Positions 4,765-19,388 of a stretch of DNA of 64,000 nucleotides are shown one piece after another. Within the stretch, counting starts at the first letter, position 1; the number at the start of each line of letters is the position of its first letter. This DNA is from an uncultured cyanobacterium (GTDB taxonomy: Bacteria; Cyanobacteriota; Cyanobacteriia; CAKZMO01), in NCBI GenBank assembly GCA_963719515.1, contig CAVRCJ010000010.1, positions 1 to 64,000 of the forward strand, given 5' to 3'. The notes under the pieces were generated by a model. The model worked only from the letters and a program-made list of their open reading frames with translations, made no database searches and was not told the DNA's origin. A program made the translations under genes and the position numbers.

Positions 4765-5487
4765 ATGCTCAGCTTAGGTGTCAACATCGACCACACCGCA
4801 ACAATTCGACAGGCTCGGCGTACCGTTGAGCCCGACCCGGTGGCAGCAGCCGTTTTGGCCGAGCTAGCCGGGGCCGACGGGATTACGGTTCACCTGCGGG
4901 AGGATCGGCGACATATTCAAGATCGGGACGTGCGGCTCCTGCGCCAGACGGTGCGCACCCACCTCAACTTGGAGATGGCTGCCACTGAGGAGATGGTGGC
5001 GATCGCCCTTGAAGTGCAGCCCGACTACGTCACCCTCGTGCCGGAGCGGCGGGAAGAGGTGACCACCGAAGGCGGCTTGGATATTGCAGGCCAGCTCGAT
5101 CGGTTCAAAGGCATTGTCAATCGGCTACAGTCTGCCCGCATCCCCGTCAGCCTGTTCATTGACCCAGATGCGCAGCAGATCGACGCCTCCGCCGCAGCCC
5201 AAGCCCAGTTCATCGAGCTGCACACCGGAGCCTACGCAGAGGCCAAAGGCGACGAGCAGCACAAAGAGCTAGCGCTGCTGGCTCAGGGGTGTCAGCAGGC
5301 GCTAGGCGCGGGTCTGCGCGTCAACGCAGGTCACGGCCTCACCTACTGGAACGTCGCCCCCGTAGCGCGGCTCCCCGGCATGGAAGAGCTCAATATTGGC
5401 CACACCATCGTCAGCCGCGCGGTGCTGGTGGGGATGGAGCGGGCGGTGCGGGAAATGAAGCAGGCGATCGCTGCCGCCGTTGGGTAA
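4765..5487 (+). CDS. pdxJ: Pyridoxine 5'-phosphate synthase
   Basis: [47 protein letters not shown]; true start ATG 4765. Confidence 0.97.
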
Positions 5488-5534
5488 GACTATGGCGCTG
5501 CCATGGTCCTACTCTGTCGCCACAGCAGGCAAAA

Positions 5535-5639
5535 TATAGCAAACGCCCTAACCATTAGGACATTTGCGCGCCGCATTGCCTATGCTATGTAAAGGCTTGA
5601 GCCCACGACATTATCCTAAGCAATGTGGCCAAAGCTATA
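5535..5639. repeat. ~105-bp dispersed structured repeat, copy 1
   Basis: TATAGC...CATTAGGACATTTGCGC...CTAAGCAA...GCTATA; homologous to 41135-41241 and 60935-61037. Confidence 0.8.
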
Positions 5640-5677
5640 TATTCATATAGAAGAGCAGAAAACCCAAAAAGAAGTCC

Positions 5678-6004
5678 ATGCCCACCTACCACTACATTGC
5701 CGCCAGCCGAAAGTTTTTGCTAGAAGATGAGTCCATCGAAGAGGTCATCGAAGAGCGCATTCGCAACTACCACGAGCAGGAAAAAGAAATCGACTTCTGG
5801 CTCATCGAGCAGCCCGCGTTTCTTCAGGCTCCAGAACTCGCCGCCGTGCGCGATCGCATCCCCCAGCCCGCGATGGCTATCGTGTCCACCGAGCCGCAGC
5901 TAATCGCCTGGCTGAAGCTGCGGCTCGAATACGTGGCCTCTGGGCAGTTTAGCGCCCCTTCGGAGACCATTCCTGACCCGATAGCCTCCTTAACGACGGC
6001 GTGA
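5678..6004 (+). CDS. ycf54: MgPME cyclase complex protein Ycf54
   Basis: YHYIAASRKFLL..E..EEVIEERIRNY.E..KEIDFWL...PAFL...WLKLRLEYV signature. Confidence 0.92.
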   Translation: MPTYHYIAASRKFLLEDESIEEVIEERIRNYHEQEKEIDFWLIEQPAFLQAPELAAVRDRIPQPAMAIVSTEPQLIAWLKLRLEYVASGQFSAPSETIPDPIASLTTA

Positions 6005-8230
6005 GGGCCGGGGCTTAGGGCGACTGGGCGACTGGGCGGGTGAAGGACAGGCTGCGTCCGGGCGTCCTTGATCTGGACGATCTTCTTGACGCATCGACAG
6101 GCCAACCCGCTTACGGGCTACCTCCACCTCCAACACCCGCACCCTGACCACCTGCCCCACTTTGACAATCTCGTTGGGGTCAGAGACAAACCGGTCTGCC
6201 AGCTGAGAGACATGCACTAGCCCATCTTGGTGAACGCCGATGTCCACAAAGGCCCCGAAGTTGGCGACGTTGGTGACCACACCCTCTAGGGTCATGCCGG
6301 GGGAGAGATCCGACAGCGCGTTAATATCGTCCCGAAACTGAGCGTAGGTAAACTGCTCCCTGGGGTCGCGTCCGGGTTTTTCTAGCTCGGCCAAAATGTC
6401 CTGCAGCGTCGGTAGCCCTAGGCTGTCGCTGACGTAGCGCTTCAGCTCCGTCTGTTTGAGGGCGGCGGCGAGGCGGACAGGCTCTTTCACGGGCACCCCC
6501 ACGTCAGCGGCGATCGCCTTCACGGCTCCGTAGCGTTCGGGGTGGACCGCCGTTTGGTCCAAAGGGTTATCGCCGCCGCGAATGCGCAAAAACCCCGCCG
6601 CCTGCTCAAAGGCCTTGGGGCCAAGCTTAGCCACTTTCAGCAGCTGCCGCCGGTTGCTGAAGGCCCCGTTCTGGTTGCGGTAGGCCAGGATATTGCCGGC
6701 GACGGCGGGCGTCAGCCCGGACACAAAGGTCAGCAGCTCCTTCGAGGCCGTATTCAGGTCAACGCCCACGTAGTTGACGCAGCTGGCCACGGTGTCCTCT
6801 AGCTTTTGCTTCAGCCGCTTTTGGTCCACGTCGTGCTGATACTGACCCACGCCGATAGATTTAGGATCGATTTTGACCAGCTCTGCTAGAGGGTCTTGCA
6901 GCCGCCTACCGATGCTGATGGCCCCCCGCACGGTGACGTCGAGGTCGGGGAATTCGGCGATCGCCACGGGGCTGGCCGAGTAGACGGAGGCCCCGGCCTC
7001 GCTGACCGTTACCTTGACGGGCGGGCGGTCCAGTGGCGCGAGCACCTCACTGACGAAGGCGTCCGTCTCGCGGCTGGCGGTGCCGTTGCCGATGGCAATC
7101 AGCCCAATACGGTGCTGGGCAATCAGCCGCGTCAGGGTCTGGGCCGCTGCCTGCCGCTGGGCGGCTGAGCCGTGGGGAAACACCGCCTGATACTCTACAA
7201 TTTTTCCCGTCTCGTCCAGCGCCGCCACCTTGCACCCGGTGCGAAACCCCGGATCTATGCCCAGGGTGGGCTTCATCCCGGCGGGGCTGGCCAGCAGCAG
7301 GTGGCGCAGGTTGACCGCAAAGGTCTGAATGGAGGCCTCGTCCGCCTCCTGCTTCAGCTGGGCCAATACGTCGCTGGTAATTGATGGCTTCATCAGTCGG
7401 GTGAAGGCGTCTCGAATCAGATCTTGGTAAAACTGCCGTACCTCCGGCGACCTGGCGCGAATTTCTTGATGCTCTAGGTGGGCGATCGCCGTGTCTTGGT
7501 CGACCTCTAGTCGAAAGCTCAGCGCCTTTTCCGCCCCGCCCCGATAGAGGGCCAGCAGGTTATGGGGCGCGATGCTGCGGACCGGCACCTGGTAATCGTG
7601 GTACATCTCAAACTTGCTTGCGCCGTCCGATTGATCGCCCCCTGAGGCCCGGGATTTGATAACGCCTGTTTTGATAAACTGCCGGCGGCACCAGGCGCGA
7701 TAGGCCGCCGTCTCCGCCACCCCCTCGGCCAAAATGTCGGCGGCACCTTCGAGGGCCGCTTGCCCCGTAGGGACCTCGTCACCAACGTAGGGCTGAGCAA
7801 GTTGAGCGAGGGAACTGTTCCCTTGACCCAGCTGATTCATCGCCCTGATGGCCTCCGCCAGCGGTTCTAGCCCCTTCTCCCGCGCCGCCGTTGCCCGCGT
7901 CCGTCGTCTAGGCCGATAGGGCAGGTAGAGGTCTTCTAGCTCGGTCTTTTGGGTGCAGTGGGCGATCGCCTGCCGCAGCTCCGCTGTCAGCTTTCCCTGG
8001 GCGTCTATCGATGCGAGAATCGCCTGCCGGCGCTCCTGGAGATCGGTTTGGTAGGCATAGGCCTCAGCCAGCGCCCTCAGCTGGGTTTCATCCATTTGCC
8101 CCGTGCGCTCTTTGCGGTAGCGGGCAATAAAAGGAACAGTGGCCCCCTCCTCCAGCAGTTTGAGCGCCTGGGTAACCTGGTGGGGCGACAGGGAAAGGGT
8201 TTGAGCGAGCTGCAGCGTTAAATCAGGCAT
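5990..8230 (-). CDS. tex: Tex-family RNA-binding transcriptional accessory protein
   Basis: EGATVPFIARYRKE, GIDPGFRTGCK, DPKSIGVGQYQHD and a C-terminal S1 domain (GAFVDIGVHQDGLVHVS). Confidence 0.96.
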   Translation of the reverse strand: MPDLTLQLAQTLSLSPHQVTQALKLLEEGATVPFIARYRKERTGQMDETQLRALAEAYAYQTDLQERRQAILASIDAQGKLTAELRQAIAHCTQKTELEDLYLPYRPRRRTRATAAREKGLEPLAEAIRAMNQLGQGNSSLAQLAQPYVGDEVPTGQAALEGAADILAEGVAETAAYRAWCRRQFIKTGVIKSRASGGDQSDGASKFEMYHDYQVPVRSIAPHNLLALYRGGAEKALSFRLEVDQDTAIAHLEHQEIRARSPEVRQFYQDLIRDAFTRLMKPSITSDVLAQLKQEADEASIQTFAVNLRHLLLASPAGMKPTLGIDPGFRTGCKVAALDETGKIVEYQAVFPHGSAAQRQAAAQTLTRLIAQHRIGLIAIGNGTASRETDAFVSEVLAPLDRPPVKVTVSEAGASVYSASPVAIAEFPDLDVTVRGAISIGRRLQDPLAELVKIDPKSIGVGQYQHDVDQKRLKQKLEDTVASCVNYVGVDLNTASKELLTFVSGLTPAVAGNILAYRNQNGAFSNRRQLLKVAKLGPKAFEQAAGFLRIRGGDNPLDQTAVHPERYGAVKAIAADVGVPVKEPVRLAAALKQTELKRYVSDSLGLPTLQDILAELEKPGRDPREQFTYAQFRDDINALSDLSPGMTLEGVVTNVANFGAFVDIGVHQDGLVHVSQLADRFVSDPNEIVKVGQVVRVRVLEVEVARKRVGLSMRQEDRPDQGRPDAACPSPAQSPSRPKPRPSRRR

Positions 8231-8312
8231 TTGAAATCAAGCTTTTGTAGATATGACGATGGGCTTACGCTAATCTATCTAAAGGTACAGAGTATCGCGC
8301 GAACTCACAGTT

Positions 8313-8331
8313 CTTAATCTTTTGTTTACTT
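8313..8331 (+). promoter_or_regulatory. Putative Pho box (SphR/PhoB)
   Basis: CTTAATCT-N3-GTTTACTT, an 11-bp-period repeat resembling CTTAACCT, ~75 bp upstream of pstS. Confidence 0.45.
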
Positions 8332-8402
8332 TAGACGTTTATGCTCTATCCGACACAGTGCTTAGGTGTGTCGCAAATATAACCGAGTGAGAGCGTACAA
8401 AC

Positions 8403-9458
8403 ATGATGTTTTACAAAAGAGCTTTGTATGCGGCCTTCAGCCTTTCCCTAGTGGCTGTTTTGGCGGCATGTAGCGGCGGAGAGCCCGCTGCTGACAGTGG
8501 TGCAGAAGACGGAACCGATGTCGCTTCTGCTGAAGGCGGCGAAGGCGTCAGCGGAGACGTGCTCGTTGATGGCTCCAGTACCGTATTCCCAATTTCTGAA
8601 GCCATGGCGGAGGAATTTATGGCCGAGAACCCCGACACCCGCGTGACGGTTGGGGTTTCCGGTTCTGGCGGCGGCTTCAAGAAGTTTTGCGCCGGCGAAA
8701 CCGACATCTCCAACGCATCCCGTCCCATTAAGCAAGAAGAGATGGACCTCTGCGCCGAAGCCGGCATTGAGTTCATTGAGGTGCCCGTTGCCTTTGACGG
8801 CGTGACCGTCGTGGTCAACCCCGAGAACGACTGGGCCGAGTGCCTCACCGCTGACCAGCTGGGTCAGATGTGGGCTCCCGACGCTGAAGGTACGATTACG
8901 AGCTGGAACCAAATCGATTCGTCCTATCCCGATACGCCGCTGGGTCTATACGGTCCTGGTACTGACTCTGGTACCTATGACTACTTCACCGACGCTACCA
9001 CGGGCGAAGAGGGTGAGAGCCGCGGCGACTACACCGCCAGTGAAGATGACAACGTCATCGTCCAGGGGGTTCAGTCAGACACTGGTGGCCTGGGCTTCTT
9101 TGGCTACGCTTACTACGAAGAGAACCAAGACAGCCTAAAATCGGTTGCGATTGAGAACGCCAACGGCGAGTGCATCTCGGCTGGCTCCGACGTGATTTCT
9201 GACGGTACCTACAATCCGCTAGCGCGTCCCATCTTCTTCTACGTGAAGACGGAGTCCTACCAGACCAAGCCCCAGGTGAAGGCGTTCGCGGATTACAACA
9301 TCGACTCGTCCAACGAGAACCTGATCTCTGAAGTGGGATACATTCCTCTCCCTGGCGATGTCGTTGAGAAAGTCAATGCTCGCCTTCAGGACGGGACGAC
9401 AGGCTCCATCTACGAAGGGGGATCTTCTGTGGGCGTGAAGCTGGCTGATAAGCTCTAA
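8403..9458 (+). CDS. pstS: Phosphate ABC transporter substrate-binding lipoprotein
   Basis: Lipobox [33 protein letters not shown]. Confidence 0.95.
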
Positions 9459-9511
9459 CGTCCATCGGTACCGCAGACCTAAGCCTCCGTCGTACGGCTT
9501 CTGCTACCTGT

Positions 9512-9548
9512 ATGCTGTAGGGGCATCGAGGCTCCTACAGCATTTTTA
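9512..9548 (+). terminator. Stem-loop plus U-tract between pstS and pstC
   Basis: ATGCTGTAGG...CCTACAGCAT followed by TTTT. Confidence 0.6.
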
Positions 9549-9650
9549 AGTTCAACGTTTGCAGCCTAGTGGCAACCGCTCATCGGTATCCAGTATTCAG
9601 CCGGTTCCCGATGCTGAGCGACGCTATCTCAAACTATTGGTTTTAAACCC

Positions 9651-10589
9651 ATGCCTACTGTCGATCTTTCCTCTCCTACAGTTTCGGAGATGTGGAAGCC
9701 CAATCGTAAAGCCGCGAAAATATCGCAAGCGATCGTCAAGTTTATCTGCGGCGTCTTCGCGTTTGTCTCTGTGATGACTACGATTGGCATTGTGCTGACG
9801 CTCATTTTCGAAACGACTGCCTTTTTCCAGGAAGTTTCGATATTTCACTTCCTGACTGATACAAAGTGGACGCCGCTATTTAGCAGCGGACAATTTGGCA
9901 TTTTTGTCCTGATCAGCGCTACCGTGCTGACGTCAGGAATTGCAATTCTTGTTGCCCTGCCCTTAGGGCTACTGATTGCCATCTGTCTGAGCGAATATGC
10001 CAGCCCTAAAGCCCGCAGCATTCTCAAGCCCGTGCTGGAGATTCTAGCAGGTGTCCCCAGCGTGGTGTTTGGCTATTTTGCGCTGCTGTTCGTCACGCCT
10101 CTGCTCCAGACGTTCATCCCAGGGCTGCAGGGCTTTAATGCCCTTAGCGCCGGCATTGTACTGGGCATTATGATTACACCGATTGTGGCCTCCCTGAGCG
10201 AGGATGCGATCTACGCTGTGCCTCGCAGCCTCAAAGATGGCTCCTATGCCCTAGGTGCAACCAAGCGAGAAACTATCTTGTCTATCGTTATCCCTGCCGC
10301 GCTCTCTGGGATTGTCTCTGCCGTCATTCTGGCCATTTCCCGGGCCATTGGCGAGACGATGACCGTGACCCTAGCGGCTGGTCAAAACCCTCGCTTGGGC
10401 CTCAACCCTTTGGTTCCGGTAATGACGATGACAGCGTTCATCGTGCAGGTCAGCTTGGGGGACACCCCTGCCGGCTCATTGGCCTACAAAACTATCTACG
10501 CGGTAGGAATGACGCTATTCTTAATCACCTTGGTCCTCAACGTCTTTAGCTTCTGGTTTGTTCGCCGTTTCCGGGAGAAGTACGACTAA
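9651..10589 (+). CDS. pstC: Phosphate ABC transporter permease
   Basis: [21 protein letters not shown], operon context. Confidence 0.96.
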
Positions 10590-12355: not shown

Positions 12356-12563
12356 GATAGCCTGCAAGTATTGCTGGTTTCGCCTCACTCAACTGCTGCT
12401 GCTCTTTGATAGGAAAGAGCAGCAGTTTTTTGTCTATCTTGGTTGCGACGCGACGCATTTAAACCAGGGCGAAAGCCGTAAACTATTTTCATATTTATCT
12501 CGTGGGCTCGTAATCTGTGTCATATAGATAGAAGACTTCTCACTCTTTGGAGCAGTGAAACTG

Positions 12564-13007
12564 ATGGATGTCTTGGCTCTCACAACCTTTCTAGCGCCTT
12601 GTCTACCTTTTTTGCTGGAGAAGGTAGGTGCCCCCGCCCTAGAAAGTGCCGCGACTAAGCTAGGGGAAGACACGTGGGCCAAGGCCAAGGCGATTTGGGC
12701 TAAGCTTTGGCCTCAGGTAGAATCGGAGGCGGGGGCTAAGGTGGCGGCAGAGAAGCTGGCGGATAAGCCTGAGAGTGCCGCCTGGCAGGAGGCGTTTCAA
12801 GAGGAGTTGGCGACCATTTTGAATAACGACTCGGCTTTGGCAGAGGCTGTGGCAAAGCTGTTTCAGGAGGCGCAGGCTTCTGGCGGTGGTACCTACGTGC
12901 AGCAGACGGTTCAGGAGAACCGAGGCCAGGTGATTGGCAATATGTCTGGCGGTGAGGCCAAGAATATTGCCGGAATTGGGCCAGTTCAAGGTGATGTGAA
13001 CCTGTAG
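12564..13007 (+). CDS. Bell/HeLo-like helical protein with C-terminal putative amyloid signalling motif
   Basis: Hydrophobic N-terminal helix (LAPCLPFLL), helical bundle (KAKAIWAKLWP...AWQEAFQEEL..IL..D..LA..V..L), Gly linker, then a Q/N/G-rich tail matching the next gene's N-terminus. Start is ATG 12564 or GTG 12555. Confidence 0.7.
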   Translation: MDVLALTTFLAPCLPFLLEKVGAPALESAATKLGEDTWAKAKAIWAKLWPQVESEAGAKVAAEKLADKPESAAWQEAFQEELATILNNDSALAEAVAKLFQEAQASGGGTYVQQTVQENRGQVIGNMSGGEAKNIAGIGPVQGDVNL

Positions 13008-13042
13008 CGATCGCCTCTAAGCAAAACGTTTTAAAGTGCCCT

Positions 13043-14119
13043 ATGCCGGACGCCGTTCCACACCAGCCTTTATCACCAGAAAACCAGGCCCAGCAAGATA
13101 TTGAACGTAACTCCGGTCAGGCAACGGGTAATATGTCTGGCGGACAGGCCATCAATATTTCCGGCGGGACCGTCACCATTGGCTCTGGTGGTGAGGCTAC
13201 AAATACTCAGCGAAGGCCAAGGATAGAGCAAATTCCGTCACTACTGCCCTACCTGCCCGATCGGACGAACCAGGAGTGTGAGCTAGCTGAAGTGATTCAG
13301 CGATCGCCTTTACAAACCAGACAACCGTTGATTTGTCTTGTCCATGGCGATGAGCGGCAGAGCCACGACAAGTTTTTAGAACGGCTGCGGAAGGTCTCGC
13401 TACCTCGCCTGCTACAGACGAACCAAGAGCCCACCCCAGTCAAGGCGTATCGCCTACAGTGGCCCGCAAGTCTGCGGCAGTTAGACAAGCTCCCCGCGCG
13501 TCTATCCCTGAACCTGGCCAGCGAGGTAGAGCGCCGCAGTCTAGCTAGCCTCGAAGAGATCAATCAAACATTTTGTACCCATCCAGGGCCGGTGCTCGTG
13601 CATCTGCATCTGATGACGGATGATTGGGACCGGTTTGGGGCTAGCCCAATGGCTAAAATCTTGGAGTTTTGGCAGAGCTGGCCCGACCTGGGGCCTGACC
13701 AAACCTTGGTGGTCTGCGTGTTTATTAAGTACCAGCTCAAGCGCTCCGGAAGCAAGAAGCGGCGCTGGTTCATTAACCCCATCGCTTGGCTGCGTCAGTT
13801 CCTTAGGTGTCGCCGCTGTCAAAAGCTCAACCGCGCGATCGCTGAGCAGTTAGAGAGCCTCAAGTCTACTGGTTTTGTATCCTACGACCGGCTGACGGGC
13901 ACTGTCCTATCTAAGCTAGAAAACCTCAACCGCAGCCACGTAGAAGACTGGGTGCGAGATGAGGAGACCAAAAAGTTTGCGGGGGAAGCGGCTGTGGAAC
14001 ATCTGCTAAGAGAAGTTAGAGAGATGTTTGACCAGGATGAAACCCTATCTATGGATAGGGTGGCTGACCGCCTCACTGCTTTACTTAAAGCGATCGCTAT
14101 CAGCGGGAGGGAAGCTTGA
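13043..14119 (+). CDS. Inactive STAND (iSTAND)-type protein with N-terminal putative amyloid motif
   Basis: LPYLPDRTNQ...LICLVHGDERQSHDKFLERL resembles a degenerate P-loop region (no GKT/S). Sits directly before MoxR and vWA genes, as in iSTAND ternary systems. Confidence 0.7.
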   Translation: MPDAVPHQPLSPENQAQQDIERNSGQATGNMSGGQAINISGGTVTIGSGGEATNTQRRPRIEQIPSLLPYLPDRTNQECELAEVIQRSPLQTRQPLICLVHGDERQSHDKFLERLRKVSLPRLLQTNQEPTPVKAYRLQWPASLRQLDKLPARLSLNLASEVERRSLASLEEINQTFCTHPGPVLVHLHLMTDDWDRFGASPMAKILEFWQSWPDLGPDQTLVVCVFIKYQLKRSGSKKRRWFINPIAWLRQFLRCRRCQKLNRAIAEQLESLKSTGFVSYDRLTGTVLSKLENLNRSHVEDWVRDEETKKFAGEAAVEHLLREVREMFDQDETLSMDRVADRLTALLKAIAISGREA

Positions 14120-15117
14120 TTAGCCTGCCATTTTACCGAGGAGACGGCAGTGCCCGTCCGGAAGGAGCTGTGCAGCTACCGGTGATTGAGCGATCGCGTT
14201 TACTGAGTCCAGAAAACTACATCGCCGATGAAGGGCTGCGCAATGCTTGCAATGTAGCCCTGCTGCTGGGGCAGCCGCTGCTGCTCACGGGGGAACCGGG
14301 CACCGGCAAAACTCAGTTCGCCTATAGCCTGGCCTATGAGCTGGGGCTCGACGAGCCACTGAAGTTTGAAACTAAGTCTGACAGCAGCGCCCGCGATTTG
14401 TTCTATACCTACGATGCCCTGAAGCGGTTCCAGGATGTGCAGAGCGGCGTAACCGCTAGCCAAACCTTAGACTACATCACCTACCAGGCGTTGGGGTTGG
14501 CCATCCTCCGCACCCAACCAGCGGATAAGCTTGACCACCTGCTACCCCTTGACTTTGAGCGGCTCAGCCCCCAGCGCTCGGTGGTGCTGATTGACGAGGT
14601 GGACAAAGCCCCACGAGATTTCCCCAATGATTTGCTGAATGAGCTAGACCAGCTCTATTTTAGGGTGGCGGAGCTGGGCAATGCCAAAGTGGAAGCCGAC
14701 CCGGCGCTGCAGCCGGTGGTGATTATTACCAGCAACTCGGAAAAAGACCTGCCGGACGCGTTTCTGCGGCGCTGCATTTACTACAACATCCCGTTTCCTG
14801 AGCCAGCGCGGCTAGCGGAGATTTTAGCGGGGCGGCTAGGGGGCAACGTAGACAAGACCGACGCGGTTTTGCAGACGGCGCTGGATTTGTTCGGTCGACT
14901 GCGATCGCCCAGCGCGGGGCTGCGGAAGAAGCCTGCGACGGCGGAGCTGCTGGGCTGGGTGATGGCGCTGCAGCGGTTTGCCGCAGGGAAGGCTGACCCG
15001 TTTGCTGACCCGGCGGTGGTGTTTCAGACCTTGAGTAGCTTAATCAAAACGGCAGAAGATCAGGCCAAGGCGAAGGGTGTGGTGGAGCGATGGATAGCGG
15101 AACGCGCAGCGCAATAG
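14116..15117 (+). CDS. MoxR-family AAA+ ATPase
   Basis: Walker A GEPGTGKT, Walker B VVLIDEVDKA, ITSNSEKDLPDAFLRRC, KKPATAELLGW. Confidence 0.93.
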   Translation: MISLPFYRGDGSARPEGAVQLPVIERSRLLSPENYIADEGLRNACNVALLLGQPLLLTGEPGTGKTQFAYSLAYELGLDEPLKFETKSDSSARDLFYTYDALKRFQDVQSGVTASQTLDYITYQALGLAILRTQPADKLDHLLPLDFERLSPQRSVVLIDEVDKAPRDFPNDLLNELDQLYFRVAELGNAKVEADPALQPVVIITSNSEKDLPDAFLRRCIYYNIPFPEPARLAEILAGRLGGNVDKTDAVLQTALDLFGRLRSPSAGLRKKPATAELLGWVMALQRFAAGKADPFADPAVVFQTLSSLIKTAEDQAKAKGVVERWIAERAAQ

Positions 15118-18100
15118 AGGGCCTGACGCCGGAGCTGCTGGTGCAGTTTTTGGACGACCTGCAGCAGGCGGGCTATGGCATTAGCCTCACCCACTACTTA
15201 GCGGTGCAAGATCTGCTGCTGACCTTGACGCGGCGGGGTGAGCTGCAGGAGCTGCAGGATCTGAAGCTGTTGCTGGGTCCAATTGTCTGCAGTTCTGCGA
15301 CAGAACAGCTCGATTTTCCCCAACGGTTCGATCGCTGGGCGACGCAGGTGCAGCAGCGGCAGTACCGCCCTCCGCTCACCGAAAAGGAGCAAGCCGAAGC
15401 TTTGGCGGCAGAGCTGAGCGGCTTGCAAAAAGGGGCGAAGCGGCTACGGCGGTGGTTAATCGTCGTCGTTGCTCTATCTACCGCCGCATTTGTTCCGGTT
15501 TTTTTCTATCTTTCCAGGCCTCCGGCAGAGCCCCCTATTGTGGAGGAACCAGCTACCCCTGCAACAGGCAATCCCGCCGCGAATCCACAGCCCGCCCAAG
15601 ACGGAGTCGCCCCAGAACCAATTCCATCTGAGCCAGAGCCACCTGCACCAGGTGACTTGCTCGTCGCCCCGCCCCCGCCAGAGGGCATCTTGGGACCGGG
15701 GCCACAGCTCGGCGAGTTTTTGTATTTGGGCGTGATTGTGGCCGTGCTGCTGTGCTGGCGCGGGTGGTGGTGGTGGCGAGCGCGGCTGTTTCTCAGCCGT
15801 CGGGAAACCAATCGCTCTCCAGAGCTGCAGAACATTTCCCTGCAGGGCATTCGGTCCACCGTGTTTCCACCTCGAGTGATGTTTCAAGCGGCGCAGCAGC
15901 TGCGGCAGCGCACTCGTCAGCCTGCCAGCACCCTAGACATTGACCGAACGGTCCAGGCATCTTTGCAGCGCGGCGGCTGGTTTGCGCCGGTGTACGGCTA
16001 CCGGCAGGTCATCCCGGAATATTTGGTTTTAATCGACCGCGCCAGCTACGCCGACCACCAGGCCAAGCTGGTGGAGACCCTAGTGCAGCAGCTCCGGCAA
16101 GATGGAGTCTACGCGACGCGCTATTTCTTTGATGGCGACGCGCGGGTATGCTACCCGGATGCGCCATCGGGCCTGCCCCAGGCTTTGGAGACCCTGGCGA
16201 AACAGCACCGGGAAAAGCGGCTGGTGGTGGTGGCCGGTGCGGAGACGTTTTACAGCAGTCAGACGGGGGAGGCGGTGCCCTGGCTGGAAGAGCTGCAAGG
16301 GTGGGAGCAGCGGGCGATTTTGGTGCCCAATCCAGCGGAAACCTGGGGGGGCTGGGAGTTTGGGCTGGCGAGCCGGTTTGTGGTGCTGCCGCTGTCTCCC
16401 CAAGGCATCGTTACCCTGGCCACGGTGTTTCGTCATGGGTCTGCAAGCTATTCTCTAGCTGGCGATGCGGCCCCATTCCCGGAGACCCTGGCCATGCGGC
16501 CCCAGCGATGGCTAGAGCGCCACGCCCCGGCCCCGGAGGAGGGGCGACGGATGCTGATGGAGCTGCGAGAATATTTAGGGGAAGCGGGGCTCTACTGGTT
16601 TGCGGGCTGCGCCGTGTTCCCGGAGCTGCACTGGAGCATTACGGTGTATTTGGGCAATGTGCTGCGGGATGAAAAGGATCGCCCCCTCTTGGAGCGCTAC
16701 CCGCTTGTTAAGCTGGCGCGGCTGCCCTGGTTTCGGCAGGGCTACATTCCCGACTGGCTGCGGCAGTATTTGGTGGTGAACCTGACGGCGGCGCAGAACA
16801 AGACTATCCACCAGGCGTTTCAGCAGCTGATGGTGACGGCGGTGCAGGGGGCGGTGGGGCCGCTGCAGCTGCAGATTGCCCAGCAGTATCAGCAGTCCTT
16901 GTCTCACCTGACTAATCCGCTGCTGCGGCTGCTGTCGCGGCGGGCGGCAGATGAGGCCCCAATAAAGGACTACATTTTTGTGGATTTTATGGCGCGGGAG
17001 TCGCTACTGACGGTGACGGTGCCAGAGGATGTGCAGCCGCTGCTGCGGGGGAGCCGGTATGAGAAGGCGGTGCGGCAGCAGCAGCGGGCGCTGGCGGCGG
17101 TGGTAAGCAGCTTGATTATGGTAGTGGGGTTGAACTTTTGGTGGGTGATGGCGGCCCCGACCCGGGAGATGAATCAGCTTTTACAGAGTACTCAAAGCTC
17201 GGTAGAAGAAAATGCGCTGCTAGAGGCTTTGGTTAGCTTGACGCGGGTGGGTCAAATGCTGCGGGCTTCCGGCAGCAAGAATTCTAATCTGACTTCGTCT
17301 GCGACAGATTTGTTCCTGCAGCTCACGTCGCGAGGGGTGGATGCTTCAGAGACATCTTTTGAGTTTCGGGAACGGAACCAGCTTGAGGGCTACGGCGATC
17401 GAGTTTATAGTGTGGCATTTAGCCCAGATGGGCAAACCATTGCCTCGGTTGGTAGAAACGATAGCATCAAGCTGTGGGACCTTAGCGGCAATGAGCTCGC
17501 TACCTTTGGGCACTACAGCGGTTGGGACTCTAGGGTGGGTGTTGAGATCGATGGTGTGGCATTTAGCCCAGATGGGCAAACCATTGCCTCGGGTATCTGG
17601 GACAATAGCATCAAGCTGTGGGACCTTAGCGGCAATGAGCTCGCTACCCTTGCGGGCCACGGCGATCGAGTCTATAGTGTGGCATTTAGTCCAGACGGGC
17701 AAACCATTGCCTCGGGTAGTGAGGACAATAGCATCAAGCTGTGGGACCGCAATGGCAGTCTACTCGCTACCCTTGCGGGCCACGGCGATCGAGTCTACAG
17801 TGTGGCGTTTAGCCCAGACGGGCAAACCATTGCCTCGGGTAGTGGGGACAATAGCATCAAGCTGTGGGACCGCAATGGCAGTCTACTCGCTACCCTTGCG
17901 GGCCACGGCGATCGAGTCTATAGTGTGGCGTTTAGCCCAGACGGGCAAACCATTGCCTCGGGTAGTAGGGACAATAGCATCAAGCTGTGGGACCGCAATG
18001 GCAGTCTACTCGCTACCCTTGCGGGCCACGGCGATCGAGTCTATAGTGTGGCGTTTAGCCCAGACGGGCAAACCATTGCCTCGAGCAGTGGGGACAATAG

Positions 18101-19388
18101 CATCAAGCTATGGGACCGCAGCGGCAATCTCCTCTCCACTCTTGCGGGCCACGGCGATCGAGTCTATAGTGTGGCATTTAGCCCTGACGGGCAGACCATT
18201 GCCTCGGGTAGTAGTGACAATAGCATCAAGCTATGGGACCGCAGCGGGCAGCAGGCCGTTCTCGCAATCGATCAGGGCCCTGTTCTCGAAGGACATGAGG
18301 GGCTGGTCAGTGATGTCGCCTTCAGTCCTGATGGCTCGCGGCTAACCACCAGTGGAGAGGATGGGACGGTGCGGCTATGGAATATCAGTGGTGAGCAACT
18401 AGCTGTTCTCGAAGGACATGAGGGGCTGGTCAGTGATGTCGCCTTCAGTCCTGATGGCTCGCGGCTAACCACCAGTGGAGAGGATGGGACGGTGCGGCTA
18501 TGGAATATCAGTGGTGAGCTGTTTGCTGCTGTCTTGGAAGGAAGTCAGGGGGCTGGCAATGATGTCGTCTTCAGTCCTGATGGCTCTCAGCTGGTCACTG
18601 GAGGAGAAGATAGGACAGTACGGCTATGGAATAGCAGCGGTGAGCAACTAGCTGTTCTCGAAGGAAGTCAGGGGGCTGTCAATGATGTCGCCTTCAGTCC
18701 CAATGGCTCTCAGCTGGTCACTGGAGGAGAAGATGGGATAGTACGGCTATGGAACATCAGCAGCGGTGAGCAACTAGCTGTTCTCGGAGGGAGTCAGGGG
18801 GCTGTCAATAATGTCGCCTTTAGTCCCGATGGCTCTCAGCTGGCCACCAGTGGAGAAGATGGGACAGTACGGCTATGGAATAGCAGCAGCGGTGAGCAGC
18901 TAGCCGTTCTCGAAGGACACGAGGGGCTGGCCAGTGATGTCACCTTTAGTCCCGATGGCTCTCAGCTGGCCACCAGTGGAGAAGATAGGACAGTACGACT
19001 ATGGAATATCAGCGGTGAGCAACTAGCTGTTCTCGGAGGGAGTCAGGGGGCTGTCAATGATGTCGCCTTCAGTCCCAATGGCTTTCAGCTGGTCACTGGA
19101 GGAGAAGATGGGACAGTACGGCTATGGAATATCAGTGGTGAGCTGCTTGCTGTCTTGGAAGGTCACAGCGCGGCAGTATCGATTGTGGTGTTTAGTCCTG
19201 ACGGGCAGACCATTGCCTCGGGTAGCGCAGACAGCACCATCAAGCTATGGCCTTGGCCTCTAGAAACCTTCGTCGCGTTAAGCTGCAACTGGCTAGAAAA
19301 CTACCTTCGCACCAACCCAAACGTCACCGCAGAGGACAGAGCCCTCTGCGACATCTCTGACGAACCATCGGCCAGTGGGACTGACTAG
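15090..19388 (+). CDS. Membrane vWA-like MoxR partner with C-terminal WD40 beta-propellers
   Basis: Two N-terminal TM helices flanking a Pro-rich linker; LDIDRTV...P...PEYLVLIDRAS (vWA-like, degenerate MIDAS); third TM; 15 WD40 repeats. Confidence 0.85.
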   Translation: MDSGTRSAIEGLTPELLVQFLDDLQQAGYGISLTHYLAVQDLLLTLTRRGELQELQDLKLLLGPIVCSSATEQLDFPQRFDRWATQVQQRQYRPPLTEKEQAEALAAELSGLQKGAKRLRRWLIVVVALSTAAFVPVFFYLSRPPAEPPIVEEPATPATGNPAANPQPAQDGVAPEPIPSEPEPPAPGDLLVAPPPPEGILGPGPQLGEFLYLGVIVAVLLCWRGWWWWRARLFLSRRETNRSPELQNISLQGIRSTVFPPRVMFQAAQQLRQRTRQPASTLDIDRTVQASLQRGGWFAPVYGYRQVIPEYLVLIDRASYADHQAKLVETLVQQLRQDGVYATRYFFDGDARVCYPDAPSGLPQALETLAKQHREKRLVVVAGAETFYSSQTGEAVPWLEELQGWEQRAILVPNPAETWGGWEFGLASRFVVLPLSPQGIVTLATVFRHGSASYSLAGDAAPFPETLAMRPQRWLERHAPAPEEGRRMLMELREYLGEAGLYWFAGCAVFPELHWSITVYLGNVLRDEKDRPLLERYPLVKLARLPWFRQGYIPDWLRQYLVVNLTAAQNKTIHQAFQQLMVTAVQGAVGPLQLQIAQQYQQSLSHLTNPLLRLLSRRAADEAPIKDYIFVDFMARESLLTVTVPEDVQPLLRGSRYEKAVRQQQRALAAVVSSLIMVVGLNFWWVMAAPTREMNQLLQSTQSSVEENALLEALVSLTRVGQMLRASGSKNSNLTSSATDLFLQLTSRGVDASETSFEFRERNQLEGYGDRVYSVAFSPDGQTIASVGRNDSIKLWDLSGNELATFGHYSGWDSRVGVEIDGVAFSPDGQTIASGIWDNSIKLWDLSGNELATLAGHGDRVYSVAFSPDGQTIASGSEDNSIKLWDRNGSLLATLAGHGDRVYSVAFSPDGQTIASGSGDNSIKLWDRNGSLLATLAGHGDRVYSVAFSPDGQTIASGSRDNSIKLWDRNGSLLATLAGHGDRVYSVAFSPDGQTIASSSGDNSIKLWDRSGNLLSTLAGHGDRVYSVAFSPDGQTIASGSSDNSIKLWDRSGQQAVLAIDQGPVLEGHEGLVSDVAFSPDGSRLTTSGEDGTVRLWNISGEQLAVLEGHEGLVSDVAFSPDGSRLTTSGEDGTVRLWNISGELFAAVLEGSQGAGNDVVFSPDGSQLVTGGEDRTVRLWNSSGEQLAVLEGSQGAVNDVAFSPNGSQLVTGGEDGIVRLWNISSGEQLAVLGGSQGAVNNVAFSPDGSQLATSGEDGTVRLWNSSSGEQLAVLEGHEGLASDVTFSPDGSQLATSGEDRTVRLWNISGEQLAVLGGSQGAVNDVAFSPNGFQLVTGGEDGTVRLWNISGELLAVLEGHSAAVSIVVFSPDGQTIASGSADSTIKLWPWPLETFVALSCNWLENYLRTNPNVTAEDRALCDISDEPSASGTD
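17382..19260 (+). repeat. Intragenic WD40 tandem array (~123-126 bp units), two repeat families
   Basis: 7 units of GHGDRVYSVAFSPDGQTIASGSxDNSIKLWD type, 7 of GHEGLVSD/GSQGAVND...GEDGTVRLWN type, then one final first-type unit. Several units are near-identical at DNA level. Confidence 0.95.

Follow-up and report, generated by a model that had tools for sequence, protein, structure and literature searches.

Kaur, Burroughs, Iyer and Aravind (eLife 2020, PMC7159879) predicted a class of ternary conflict systems built from an iSTAND protein, a MoxR ATPase and a vWA protein. A separate line of work has described Bell, which in the account of Dyrka et al. (2020, bioRxiv 10.1101/2020.01.06.895854) is a helical domain of about 100 amino acids, found mostly in short proteins and sometimes fused to an NLR. 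The N-terminal helix of Bell is hydrophobic and bears an acidic residue at position 2 or 3, and the C-terminal motif of the protein is mirrored on the adjacent NLR. In E. coli ECOR25, the Bell-type protein Bab and the TPR-GreA/B-PIN protein Agp protect against T5 by abortive infection, acting through a motif that both carry, a precedent for a receptor that is not an NLR (Ibarlosa et al. 2024, bioRxiv 10.1101/2024.11.07.622273). As recounted in the same preprint, the N-terminal motif of the NWD2 receptor of Podospora anserina templates the C-terminal motif of the effector HET-S, freeing a membrane-targeting helix. Here we describe a locus that appears to combine these schemes: four genes, g1 to g4, at positions 12564-19388 of a 64,000-nucleotide stretch (the window) of contig CAVRCJ010000010.1 (assembly GCA_963719515.1), from an uncultured cyanobacterium.

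In this locus, a small helical protein (g1) and an iSTAND protein (g2) share a motif, and a MoxR ATPase (g3) and a membrane protein with a WD40 array (g4) follow. The architecture recurs, the two motif copies co-vary, and both motif and partner are swapped in a modular fashion. On balance, we favor the view that the locus is an iSTAND-type MoxR-vWA ternary system in which Bell-like g1 serves as the output by way of a motif of the bacterial amyloid signaling sequence (BASS) type, at the end of a chain running from the WD40 array to cell death. A reading made from the letters and open reading frames (ORFs) of the window (the sequence-only reading) had proposed that the two schemes are merged here. 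By sequence comparison this merged wiring is real, recurrent and co-evolving, a conclusion that we draw from the recurrence of the locus, the co-variation of its own motif pairs and the exchange of motif and partner. The coupling, judged in the same way, is by a short G/N/Q-rich motif instead of a folded effector-associated domain (EAD).

Motif sharing between g1 and the iSTAND protein

The two central genes are readily assigned. g2 is an iSTAND protein by Pfam PF19995 (residues 69-228, E 2.4e-18, 67.5 bits against a cut-off of 24), and the Pfam scan found no repeat domain alongside iSTAND. Its P-loop position reads HGDERQSHDKF, without GK[ST]; in an alignment of 26 g2 homologues the same position reads HGDE.QSH, and GK[ST] occurs in none of the 26. 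g3 matches Pfam AAA_5 (E 1.5e-10) and has intact Walker A (GEPGTGKT) and Walker B (VVLIDEVD) motifs. The genome contains a second iSTAND operon, and g3 shares 41% identity (E 4e-56) with the MoxR encoded there. The iSTAND and MoxR identities given to genes 2 and 3 by the sequence-only reading are both borne out, as is its layout of four co-directional, tightly packed genes, with a gap of 35 bp between g1 and g2 and overlaps of 4 bp (TTGA) between g2 and g3 and of 28 bp between g3 and g4.

That reading had also seen a match between the iSTAND N-terminal motif and the tail of gene 1. When the last 45 residues of g1 were compared with the downstream three-frame translation, the local score was 82, against a mean of 27.6 (standard deviation 4.9) and a maximum of 54 for 243 shuffled-tail controls. 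By BLASTP (E 9e-8), residues 113-137 of g1 align with residues 17-41 of g2, 15 of the 25 positions being identical and 19 positive. The match is real. The composition of the g1 tail is strongly biased, G, N, Q, V and I together making up 24 of 36 residues and K, P and L only three, which is the bias that Dyrka et al. (2020) describe for BASS motifs. A weak second match of the motif core lies in residues 43-54 of g2 (13169-13204, 'TIGSGGEATN', BLASTP E 0.91), and may be a degenerate pseudo-repeat, as reported for some amyloid motifs, or chance. A complex prediction with three copies of g2 residues 1-62 together with g1 residues 100-147 gave a score of 0.01 and a mark of 0.32, and counts neither way on binding.

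Full-length g1 homologues at 54% identity or more were found at ten loci (L001-L009 and L018), from Leptolyngbyaceae, Acaryochloris, Nostoc, Anabaena and two cyanobacterial metagenome-assembled genomes (MAGs). Directly downstream in seven of the ten are homologues of g2 (33-61% identical), g3 (65-72%) and the N-terminal region of g4 (36-59%). At L002, g2 is followed by the end of the contig, and at L004 and L006 the contig ends no more than 60 nucleotides past g1. As these last two loci are uninformative, the link to iSTAND holds in all eight of the informative close loci. Two more g1-g2 adjacencies were seen, by locus tags, among database matches (F6K19_18670/18665 and ABG776_03005/03000), and a further locus (L096) has g1-like, iSTAND, MoxR and g4-like genes, with a gap of 1.2 kb between the g1-like gene and iSTAND. 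L096 comes from one of 11 genomes, the source genome among them, that gave a match at E<=1e-20 when 401 cyanobacterial genomes were searched with a relative of g2.

Some of these copies are interrupted. The gap in L096 holds an opposite-strand ORF of 298 amino acids (6945-7841, minus) that resembles a mobile-element gene and is a candidate for one. In L007 (9542-10604), a stop codon lies between the start of the motif-bearing frame and the iSTAND domain, the first long ORF beginning at 9951, and the iSTAND match of L085, in genome G164, contains one internal TAA. The interrupted frames of L007 and G164 reflect either decay of the copies or errors of assembly.

One check on the merged wiring, named beforehand, was whether the quartet recurs with motif pairs that co-vary. 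The outcome was positive, the seven full loci being matched by the behavior of the motifs. Across ten pairs of tail and N-terminus, the mean score of a tail with its own partner was 74.9, against 61.8 for cross-pairs, and none of 20000 re-pairings reached the observed sum. The split between tail and N-terminal copies is older than the divergence of these species, so that no own-pair excess would be expected had the copies evolved independently; we take the excess to reflect concerted evolution. Sub-classes also agree across the partners, '..GQM.GGEAKNI' occurring with '..GQMSGGQAINI' and '..GQMQNSQAKNI' with '..GQLDNGQALNF'. In the window itself, g1 has 'IGNMSGG' and g2 'TGNMSGG', so that both copies have N at a position where nearly all relatives have Q, although this is a single event. 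A quick IQ-TREE phylogeny of the N-terminal domain (78 rows, 105 columns) groups the nine rows linked to iSTAND in a single clade with 15 members (SH-aLRT 99). The others in the clade are two unknowns, three rows linked to nSTAND1 and one linked to CHAT, which carry a related motif. Judging from this tree, the iSTAND link may have one origin.

The N-terminus of iSTAND appears to be an exchangeable module. When the N-termini of 65 g2 homologues were sorted by patterns of our own, 37 had the motif of the window (the g1/g2 type), 14 had a second motif, 'QGNENS.VQGNDNQAVLGN..', and 14 had neither. The last group includes nine proteins with another N-terminal domain (Pfam-annotated in eight, as TIR, CHAT, trypsin, PF13271, PF13643 or PF19962), three that are N-terminally shortened and one with a variant motif. 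In three genomes with the second motif, the MoxR is orthologous (63-68% identical to g3) and the g4-like genes are 37-40% identical to g4, and the partner has been replaced. At two of these loci (L097 and L098), the upstream gene encodes a different small protein of 158-178 amino acids, whose N-terminus carries the second motif and whose C-terminal helix is hydrophobic; the motifs score 74-82, whereas the shuffles peak at 48-53. At L099, an FGE-sulfatase protein and iSTAND have a common N-terminus of 95 residues (score 262), and a pentapeptide-repeat membrane protein has the small protein as its C-terminal part. The second class ('QGDNNRAVQGDNNQ..LGDGNQVTQQN', rich in Q, N and G) is N-terminal on both partners.

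At three other sister loci, a protein that is caspase-like (by eye) or trypsin-like and the iSTAND protein have a common helical stretch (scores 69-118), a coupling that is the EAD principle set out by Kaur et al. (2020). Since motif and partner are swapped within orthologous systems, we conclude that the iSTAND N-terminal module is mirrored on the neighbor, whatever that module is. In the g1/g2 clade, as far as the sequences tell, the mirrored module is a BASS-like motif on a Bell-like protein.

The g1 family extends well beyond iSTAND loci. A word-index search with g1 gave 47 proteins at E<=0.01. When one genome was scanned for each species, 127 relatives came up, and 80 loci were retained (81 with the g1 locus). 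By record title, all are cyanobacterial apart from an 'Acetobacteraceae' MAG, a Thermoflexales MAG and an 'uncultured bacterium'. The proteins are 133-373 amino acids long (median 142), and 78 of the 81 have D or E at position 2. Comparison of each tail with its downstream frame gave 42 loci that score above every shuffle (>54), 14 at 36-54 and 25 at 35 or below, and distinct motif classes co-vary with the N-terminus of the partner, for example a '..DNIQVSANAYDQSTVKQVGKIDANQV' tail with '..NNIEMNLTAYGDSKVTQVGQINAAEV'.

Downstream partners were counted in 73 scanned ORFs, seven loci having no ORF of at least 250 amino acids. NB-ARC was named by Pfam in 14, and another 38, for which Pfam lists TPR families only, are NB-ARC-like by BLASTP to the Pfam-named stretches. 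iSTAND and nSTAND1 account for seven each, TPR alone for three, and NACHT, CHAT, a weak ATPase_2 match and a protein without a family for one each. A profile of the g1 domain matched 1827 representatives of 50%-identity clusters at E<=0.001 (850 at 1e-10). Among the 150 matches listed, most are of 130-160 amino acids with the domain starting at residue 1. We scanned 13 longer ones: six have the domain at residues 1 to about 105, N-terminal to NACHT, NB-ARC or nSTAND1 (P0141, P0168, P0209, P0240, P0208 and P0146), five are fused to CHAT or TIR (the domain being C-terminal in two), and two have no Pfam family. This pairing with, and fusion to, NLR-type ATPases is, at the level of sequence, the behavior published for Bell.

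One type of tail, '..NAQSYDESIQINTAGNVN.P.YD..R.INSPK', is not matched by any motif on the NB-ARC/TPR protein next to it (L028, L029, L031, L037, L051, L054, L058, L060, L066, L071, L077 and others). In these loci NB-ARC begins about 8-33 residues from the start of the ORF, and the partner motif of such tails, if any, lies elsewhere.

Domains of g1 and g4 and the setting of the locus

An AF2 model of g1, built with 29 homologues, has six helices in residues 3-105 (mean pLDDT 70.7, pTM 0.57). Taken in blocks of ten residues, pLDDT is 64-88 over this region and below 50 in the tail (107-147), which is predicted to be disordered. Residues 1-19 are hydrophobic (mean hydropathy 2.02), with D at position 2.

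g4 consists of an N-terminal helical region, a first transmembrane (TM) segment, a Pro/Glu-rich loop, a second TM segment, vWA-like and helical domains, a third TM segment and the WD40 array. Hydropathy places TM1 at residues 119-143, TM2 at 204-225 and TM3 at 666-689; TM3 passes the threshold in seven of 11 g4 homologues, from each of which the N-terminal 715-814 residues were extracted. K and R are abundant ahead of TM1, behind TM2 and ahead of TM3, and sparse in the loop (144-203) and past TM3. By the positive-inside rule, this pattern would leave the array outside the cytoplasm and both the N-terminal helical region and the vWA-like domain inside. Hydropathy and the charge pattern together predict an extracytoplasmic WD40 array, a refinement of the 'receptor' of the sequence-only reading. 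The array is made up of two near-identical tandem arrays with a period of 123 nucleotides, one of 5.6 copies at 93% matches and one of 7.0 copies at 86%. Among homologues, the C-terminal module of g4 varies, being WD40, FGE-sulfatase (L007 and L018) or none.

Two long ORFs in alternative frames lie within g4 (17341-18345, plus strand, 334 amino acids; 16148-16672, plus strand, 174 amino acids). They are a product of the repeat structure and of high GC, and there is no sign that they are genes. GC is 0.61-0.63 across the N-terminal region of g4 (15500-17000), against 0.52-0.56 in the flanks.

The quartet had been placed between pstB and the cup operon, and the flanking genes agree: pst-type ABC-transporter genes (pstA-like and pstB-like) lie upstream, and the downstream neighbors, all encoded on the minus strand, are genes for fasciclin, ChpXY (CupA-like) and an NdhD-like protein. 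A terminator-like hairpin 3' of pstB separates the quartet from the upstream pst operon. The ATG start of g1 agrees with the N-termini of its homologues and has GGAG 10 nucleotides upstream, and the TTG start of g3 lies within the TTGA overlap and is preceded by GGAGG. Coordinates are collected in the table.

Features of the quartet in the window, with the second-motif proteins of three related loci
Feature	Position	Strand	Description
terminator-like hairpin	12395..12426	+	13 pairs, 6 of them G-C, then a T run; 3' of pstB
g1	12564..13007	+	147 aa; Bell-like protein, ATG start
g1 tail motif	12900..12974	+	residues 113-137; rich in G, N, Q, V, I
g2	13043..14119	+	358 aa; iSTAND protein
g2 N-terminal motif	13091..13165	+	residues 17-41; matches g1 tail
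g3	14116..15117	+	333 aa; MoxR-type AAA+ ATPase, TTG start
g4	15090..19388	+	1432 aa; membrane protein, vWA-like domain, WD40 array
g4 alpha/beta domain	16005..16442	+	residues ~306-451; vWA-like, MIDAS position degenerate (DRASY)
g4 WD40 array	17400..19388	+	15 Pfam WD40 stretches, from about residue 771
second-motif protein, L097	6055-6591	minus	
second-motif protein, L098	4915-5391	minus	
second-motif proteins, L099	8730-9929, 9939-12113	minus	

The source genome has a second iSTAND system on contig C1, minus strand (L084, 226000-243000; locus coordinates 5472-10334). Its genes encode Trypco1 (160 amino acids), a trypsin-iSTAND protein (354), MoxR (315) and a CoxE-type vWA protein (477; Pfam 35.1 bits); a 245-amino-acid ORF in L084 has no family match. 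The iSTAND, MoxR and vWA genes stand in the same order as g2, g3 and the vWA-like g4. Unlike the quartet, the second system is of the classical type, with trypsin fused to iSTAND, Trypco1 upstream and a vWA protein without a WD40 array, and it is a useful internal comparator.

PADLOC found no system match over the quartet, g3 matching P-loop only. Two other classifications were considered and set aside. g3 scores 86 bits as MadB (NCBIfam), far under the cut-off of 475, and membership was not taken. The beta-propeller type among the MoxR-vWA ternary systems (subsystem 4 of Kaur et al. 2020) was rejected on the score of PF20030 bpMoxR (14.8 bits against a cut-off of 27), and also because the third component is iSTAND, not a TPR/propeller protein, and g4 has 15 WD40 repeats, not a propeller of about four blades.

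Proposed mechanism and alternatives

We suggest that the WD40 array of g4, which is variable, built of near-identical repeats and predicted to be periplasmic, would bind an envelope-associated cue such as phage. The cytoplasmic vWA-like part of g4 and the active MoxR ATPase would then remodel or release iSTAND, which would oligomerize, so that its N-terminal motifs build a template. This template would convert the g1 tail and free the hydrophobic N-terminal helix for membrane attack, leading to cell death or abortive infection. The first three steps are modeled on Kaur et al. (2020) and Dore et al. (2024), as far as these describe such systems, and the last step and the amyloid state on HET-S/NWD2 and Bab/Agp as presented by Ibarlosa et al. 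(2024). The g2 scaffold probably recruits and fires g1 through the common motif. The sensor role of g4 draws on the variability of its C-terminus across orthologues and on its near-identical repeats, a feature noted by Dyrka et al. (2020) for NLR sensor repeats. Dore et al. (2024) argue for the vWA protein with the variable domain as the sensor and for the N-terminal module of the third component as the output.

Several results weigh against this mechanism. Kaur et al. (2020) treat the variable C-terminus of the vWA component as the effector, not the sensor. In 25 of the 81 family loci there is no downstream motif match, many of them having NB-ARC at the very N-terminus, so that the tail is not always paired with its neighbor; these 25 include three contig ends and '..SYDESIQIN..' tails, next to an NB-ARC protein without an N-terminal extension. 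For g1 itself, no Pfam, NCBIfam or PADLOC family was found (in PADLOC, g1 hit PDC-S01 at E 0.016). Foldseek against pdb gave no Bell/HeLo/MLKL-like match (best E 2.8; the coiled-coil (CC) domain of potato Rx, a weak match, stands at rank 6 with E 4.1), and VIA-align over 48,161 chains gave generic helical matches (best Z 4.9). The best E in a profile search of PDB sequences was 0.28. No similarity to Bab was detected in sequence or fold, the Bab structure, if deposited, being absent from the fold-search matches. The Pfam family HetE-N, considered for the g1 family, matched four of 29 members (best E 0.012) and none of 79 at E<=0.01; it appears in 14% of one Atlas cluster, and a literature search on HetE-N gave no relevant paper. 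Of the sequence-only assignment of gene 1 as Bell/4HB-like, the Bell-type features and pairing behavior stand, whereas a match of fold was not obtained, and the label 'Bell-like' rests on features of the sequences, not on a family match. In Ibarlosa et al. (2024), likeness among these subfamilies is said to be almost confined, in some cases, to the N-terminal helix.

The vWA part of g4 is similarly uncertain. The N-terminal 770 residues gave a single, sub-threshold Pfam match, VWA_CoxE (E 0.053, 13.4 bits against a cut-off of 26.4). A profile of 11 g4 homologues aligned by hhalign with the CoxE-type paralogue over 178 columns (E 0.0014) had a probability of 17.7%, and the MIDAS (metal ion-dependent adhesion site) position reads DRASY, with D replaced by N or E in some homologues. 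By BLASTP, residues 262-358 match the paralogous CoxE-type vWA protein at E 0.002, and in an AF2 model of residues 232-672 (mean pLDDT 61.9, but 70-88 across most of the alpha/beta part) the domain is an alternating beta-alpha one. VIA-align matched it to the vWA domains of CMG2 (Z 9.8), TEM8 (9.7), integrin beta3 (9.5), TRAP (9.4) and BatB (9.0); these scores are tied with those of CheY-like, TIR and flavodoxin-like/flavoprotein folds, and Foldseek gave no match at E<=0.001. We therefore tentatively call the domain vWA-like, by its context and weak similarity. The description of gene 4 as a membrane vWA-WD40 protein was right about the membrane segments, of which there are three, and about the WD40 array, and is doubtful for the vWA part.

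The motif might also act as a non-amyloid docking peptide, by strand addition or homotypic contact, with iSTAND recruiting g1 stoichiometrically and no prion-like templating. The paired terminal modules through which Kaur et al. (2020) describe adaptor coupling, the common helical stretch of the caspase-like and trypsin-like sister loci, and the lack of structure in the modeled g1 tail are all in line with this. However, the composition and length of the motif fit BASS motifs (Dyrka et al. 2020), the g1 family uses such motifs with NLR-type ATPases, and we interpret the in-register identity and the joint Q-to-N change as fitting parallel cross-beta stacking, so that we consider simple docking unlikely. 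It is less likely still that g1 is a membrane tether or regulator that holds iSTAND beside g4, the output residing in g4 or in an unlinked gene. g4 is membrane-embedded by hydropathy, g1 has only one hydrophobic helix and matches no toxin or pore family in Pfam, PADLOC, Foldseek or VIA-align, and the source genome has a single gene of the g1 family, all of which would suit a tether. Most g1 relatives, though, pair with NB-ARC/TPR, nSTAND1 or NACHT ATPases and not with a membrane vWA protein, the domain is N-terminal in NLR-like proteins, where effector domains occur, and the Bell-type Bab executes abortive infection (Ibarlosa et al. 2024).

The same machinery could instead serve in discriminating kin, in the developmental death of cells within filaments or in surveillance for envelope damage. 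Such systems are enriched in multicellular bacteria (Table 1 of Kaur et al. 2020; Dyrka et al. 2020), the predicted position of the WD40 array outside the cytoplasm would suit these roles, and the locus lies between housekeeping operons, with no obvious defense island and no PADLOC system match. Nevertheless, the only tested architectural relative, Bab/Agp, is anti-phage (Ibarlosa et al. 2024), and the near-identical tandem repeats and variable C-terminal modules (WD40, FGE-sulfatase or none) fit an arms race; a role unrelated to phage thus strikes us as rather improbable.

Returning to the Bell-like output and the WD40-to-death chain, a broader generalization is possible, and we offer it tentatively. 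Short amyloid-type motifs may be plug-and-socket adaptors in MoxR-vWA systems, forming a chaperone-gated, outside-in amyloid death switch. Here a dead STAND scaffold, not a ligand-bound NLR, would be licensed by MoxR and a transmembrane vWA protein that relays signals from a WD40 sensor lying outside the cytoplasm and diversifying rapidly. Different outputs would be served by at least two motif classes, the window type leading to the Bell-like protein and the 'QGNENS/QGDNNQ' type to small proteins with a TM tail, FGE-sulfatase proteins and pentapeptide-repeat membrane proteins.

Comparison with known systems

No literature that joins iSTAND with amyloid, or amyloid signaling with MoxR, was found by our searches, which scarcely covered subscription journals and supplements, nor did the literature searched contain an experimental test of iSTAND/MoxR/vWA systems. 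A term search of the main text of Kaur et al. (2020) gave no mention of amyloid or low-complexity coupling, and term searches of Kaur 2021 turned up nothing relevant. Both parent schemes are mostly predictions, and bacterial amyloid signaling has one tested case, Bab/Agp. The quartet, as a compact and motif-addressable system of four genes, would allow one to ask whether an AAA+ chaperone can gate amyloid nucleation on an inactive scaffold, and whether an extracytoplasmic signal can become a cytoplasmic death signal. The natural motif swaps between the window type and the second type suggest ready-made specificity controls.

The closest described relatives are the vWA-MoxR systems of subsystem 2 in Kaur et al. 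(2020). As there, the quartet has a triad of iSTAND, MoxR and a component that is here vWA-like, TM segments and a variable C-terminal module in that component, a variable iSTAND N-terminal module that couples to the adjacent gene, and a home in cyanobacteria, where subsystem 2 is concentrated. It differs from what is described for that subsystem in the coupling module, a G/N/Q-rich motif of about 25 residues and not a folded EAD, Death-like, TIR or peptidase domain, and in the coupled protein, which is non-enzymatic, helical and Bell-like. The logic of the 'effector-associated domain' in conflict systems reaches down to motifs of 25 residues.

The Bell/NLR pairs with BASS1-10 motifs described by Dyrka et al. 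(2020) resemble g1 and g2 in the helical domain, the acidic residue at position 2, the NLR fusions within the family, and a C-terminal motif of about 25 amino acids that is repeated at the N-terminus of the product of the next gene, the two genes being collinear, close and cyanobacterial. The partner is different, g2 being a dead NTPase without repeats of its own, with the ATPase (MoxR) and the WD40 repeats on separate proteins. g2 is therefore no NLR partner in that sense, whereas most loci of the family have one (NB-ARC in 52, NACHT in one and nSTAND1 in seven of the 73). Because the screen described by Dyrka et al. (2020) was confined to NB-ARC and NACHT neighbors, pairs of the g1/iSTAND type fell outside it, and amyloid-pair screens limited in this way miss receptor types.

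Bab/Agp shares with g1/g2 a small Bell-type or Bell-like protein, a C-terminal motif and a non-NLR receptor with an N-terminal copy of that motif. The motif there is BASS11, and the system as described has no MoxR, vWA, iSTAND or membrane sensor (Ibarlosa et al. 2024); its function, abortive infection by assembly of the motif, has been shown by experiment. HET-S/NWD2 is like the proposed step from g2 to g1 in that an N-terminal motif templates a C-terminal one, and unlike it in being fungal, with an active NACHT-WD receptor and a HeLo effector domain. The wiring of the quartet is a new combination, formed from two known schemes.

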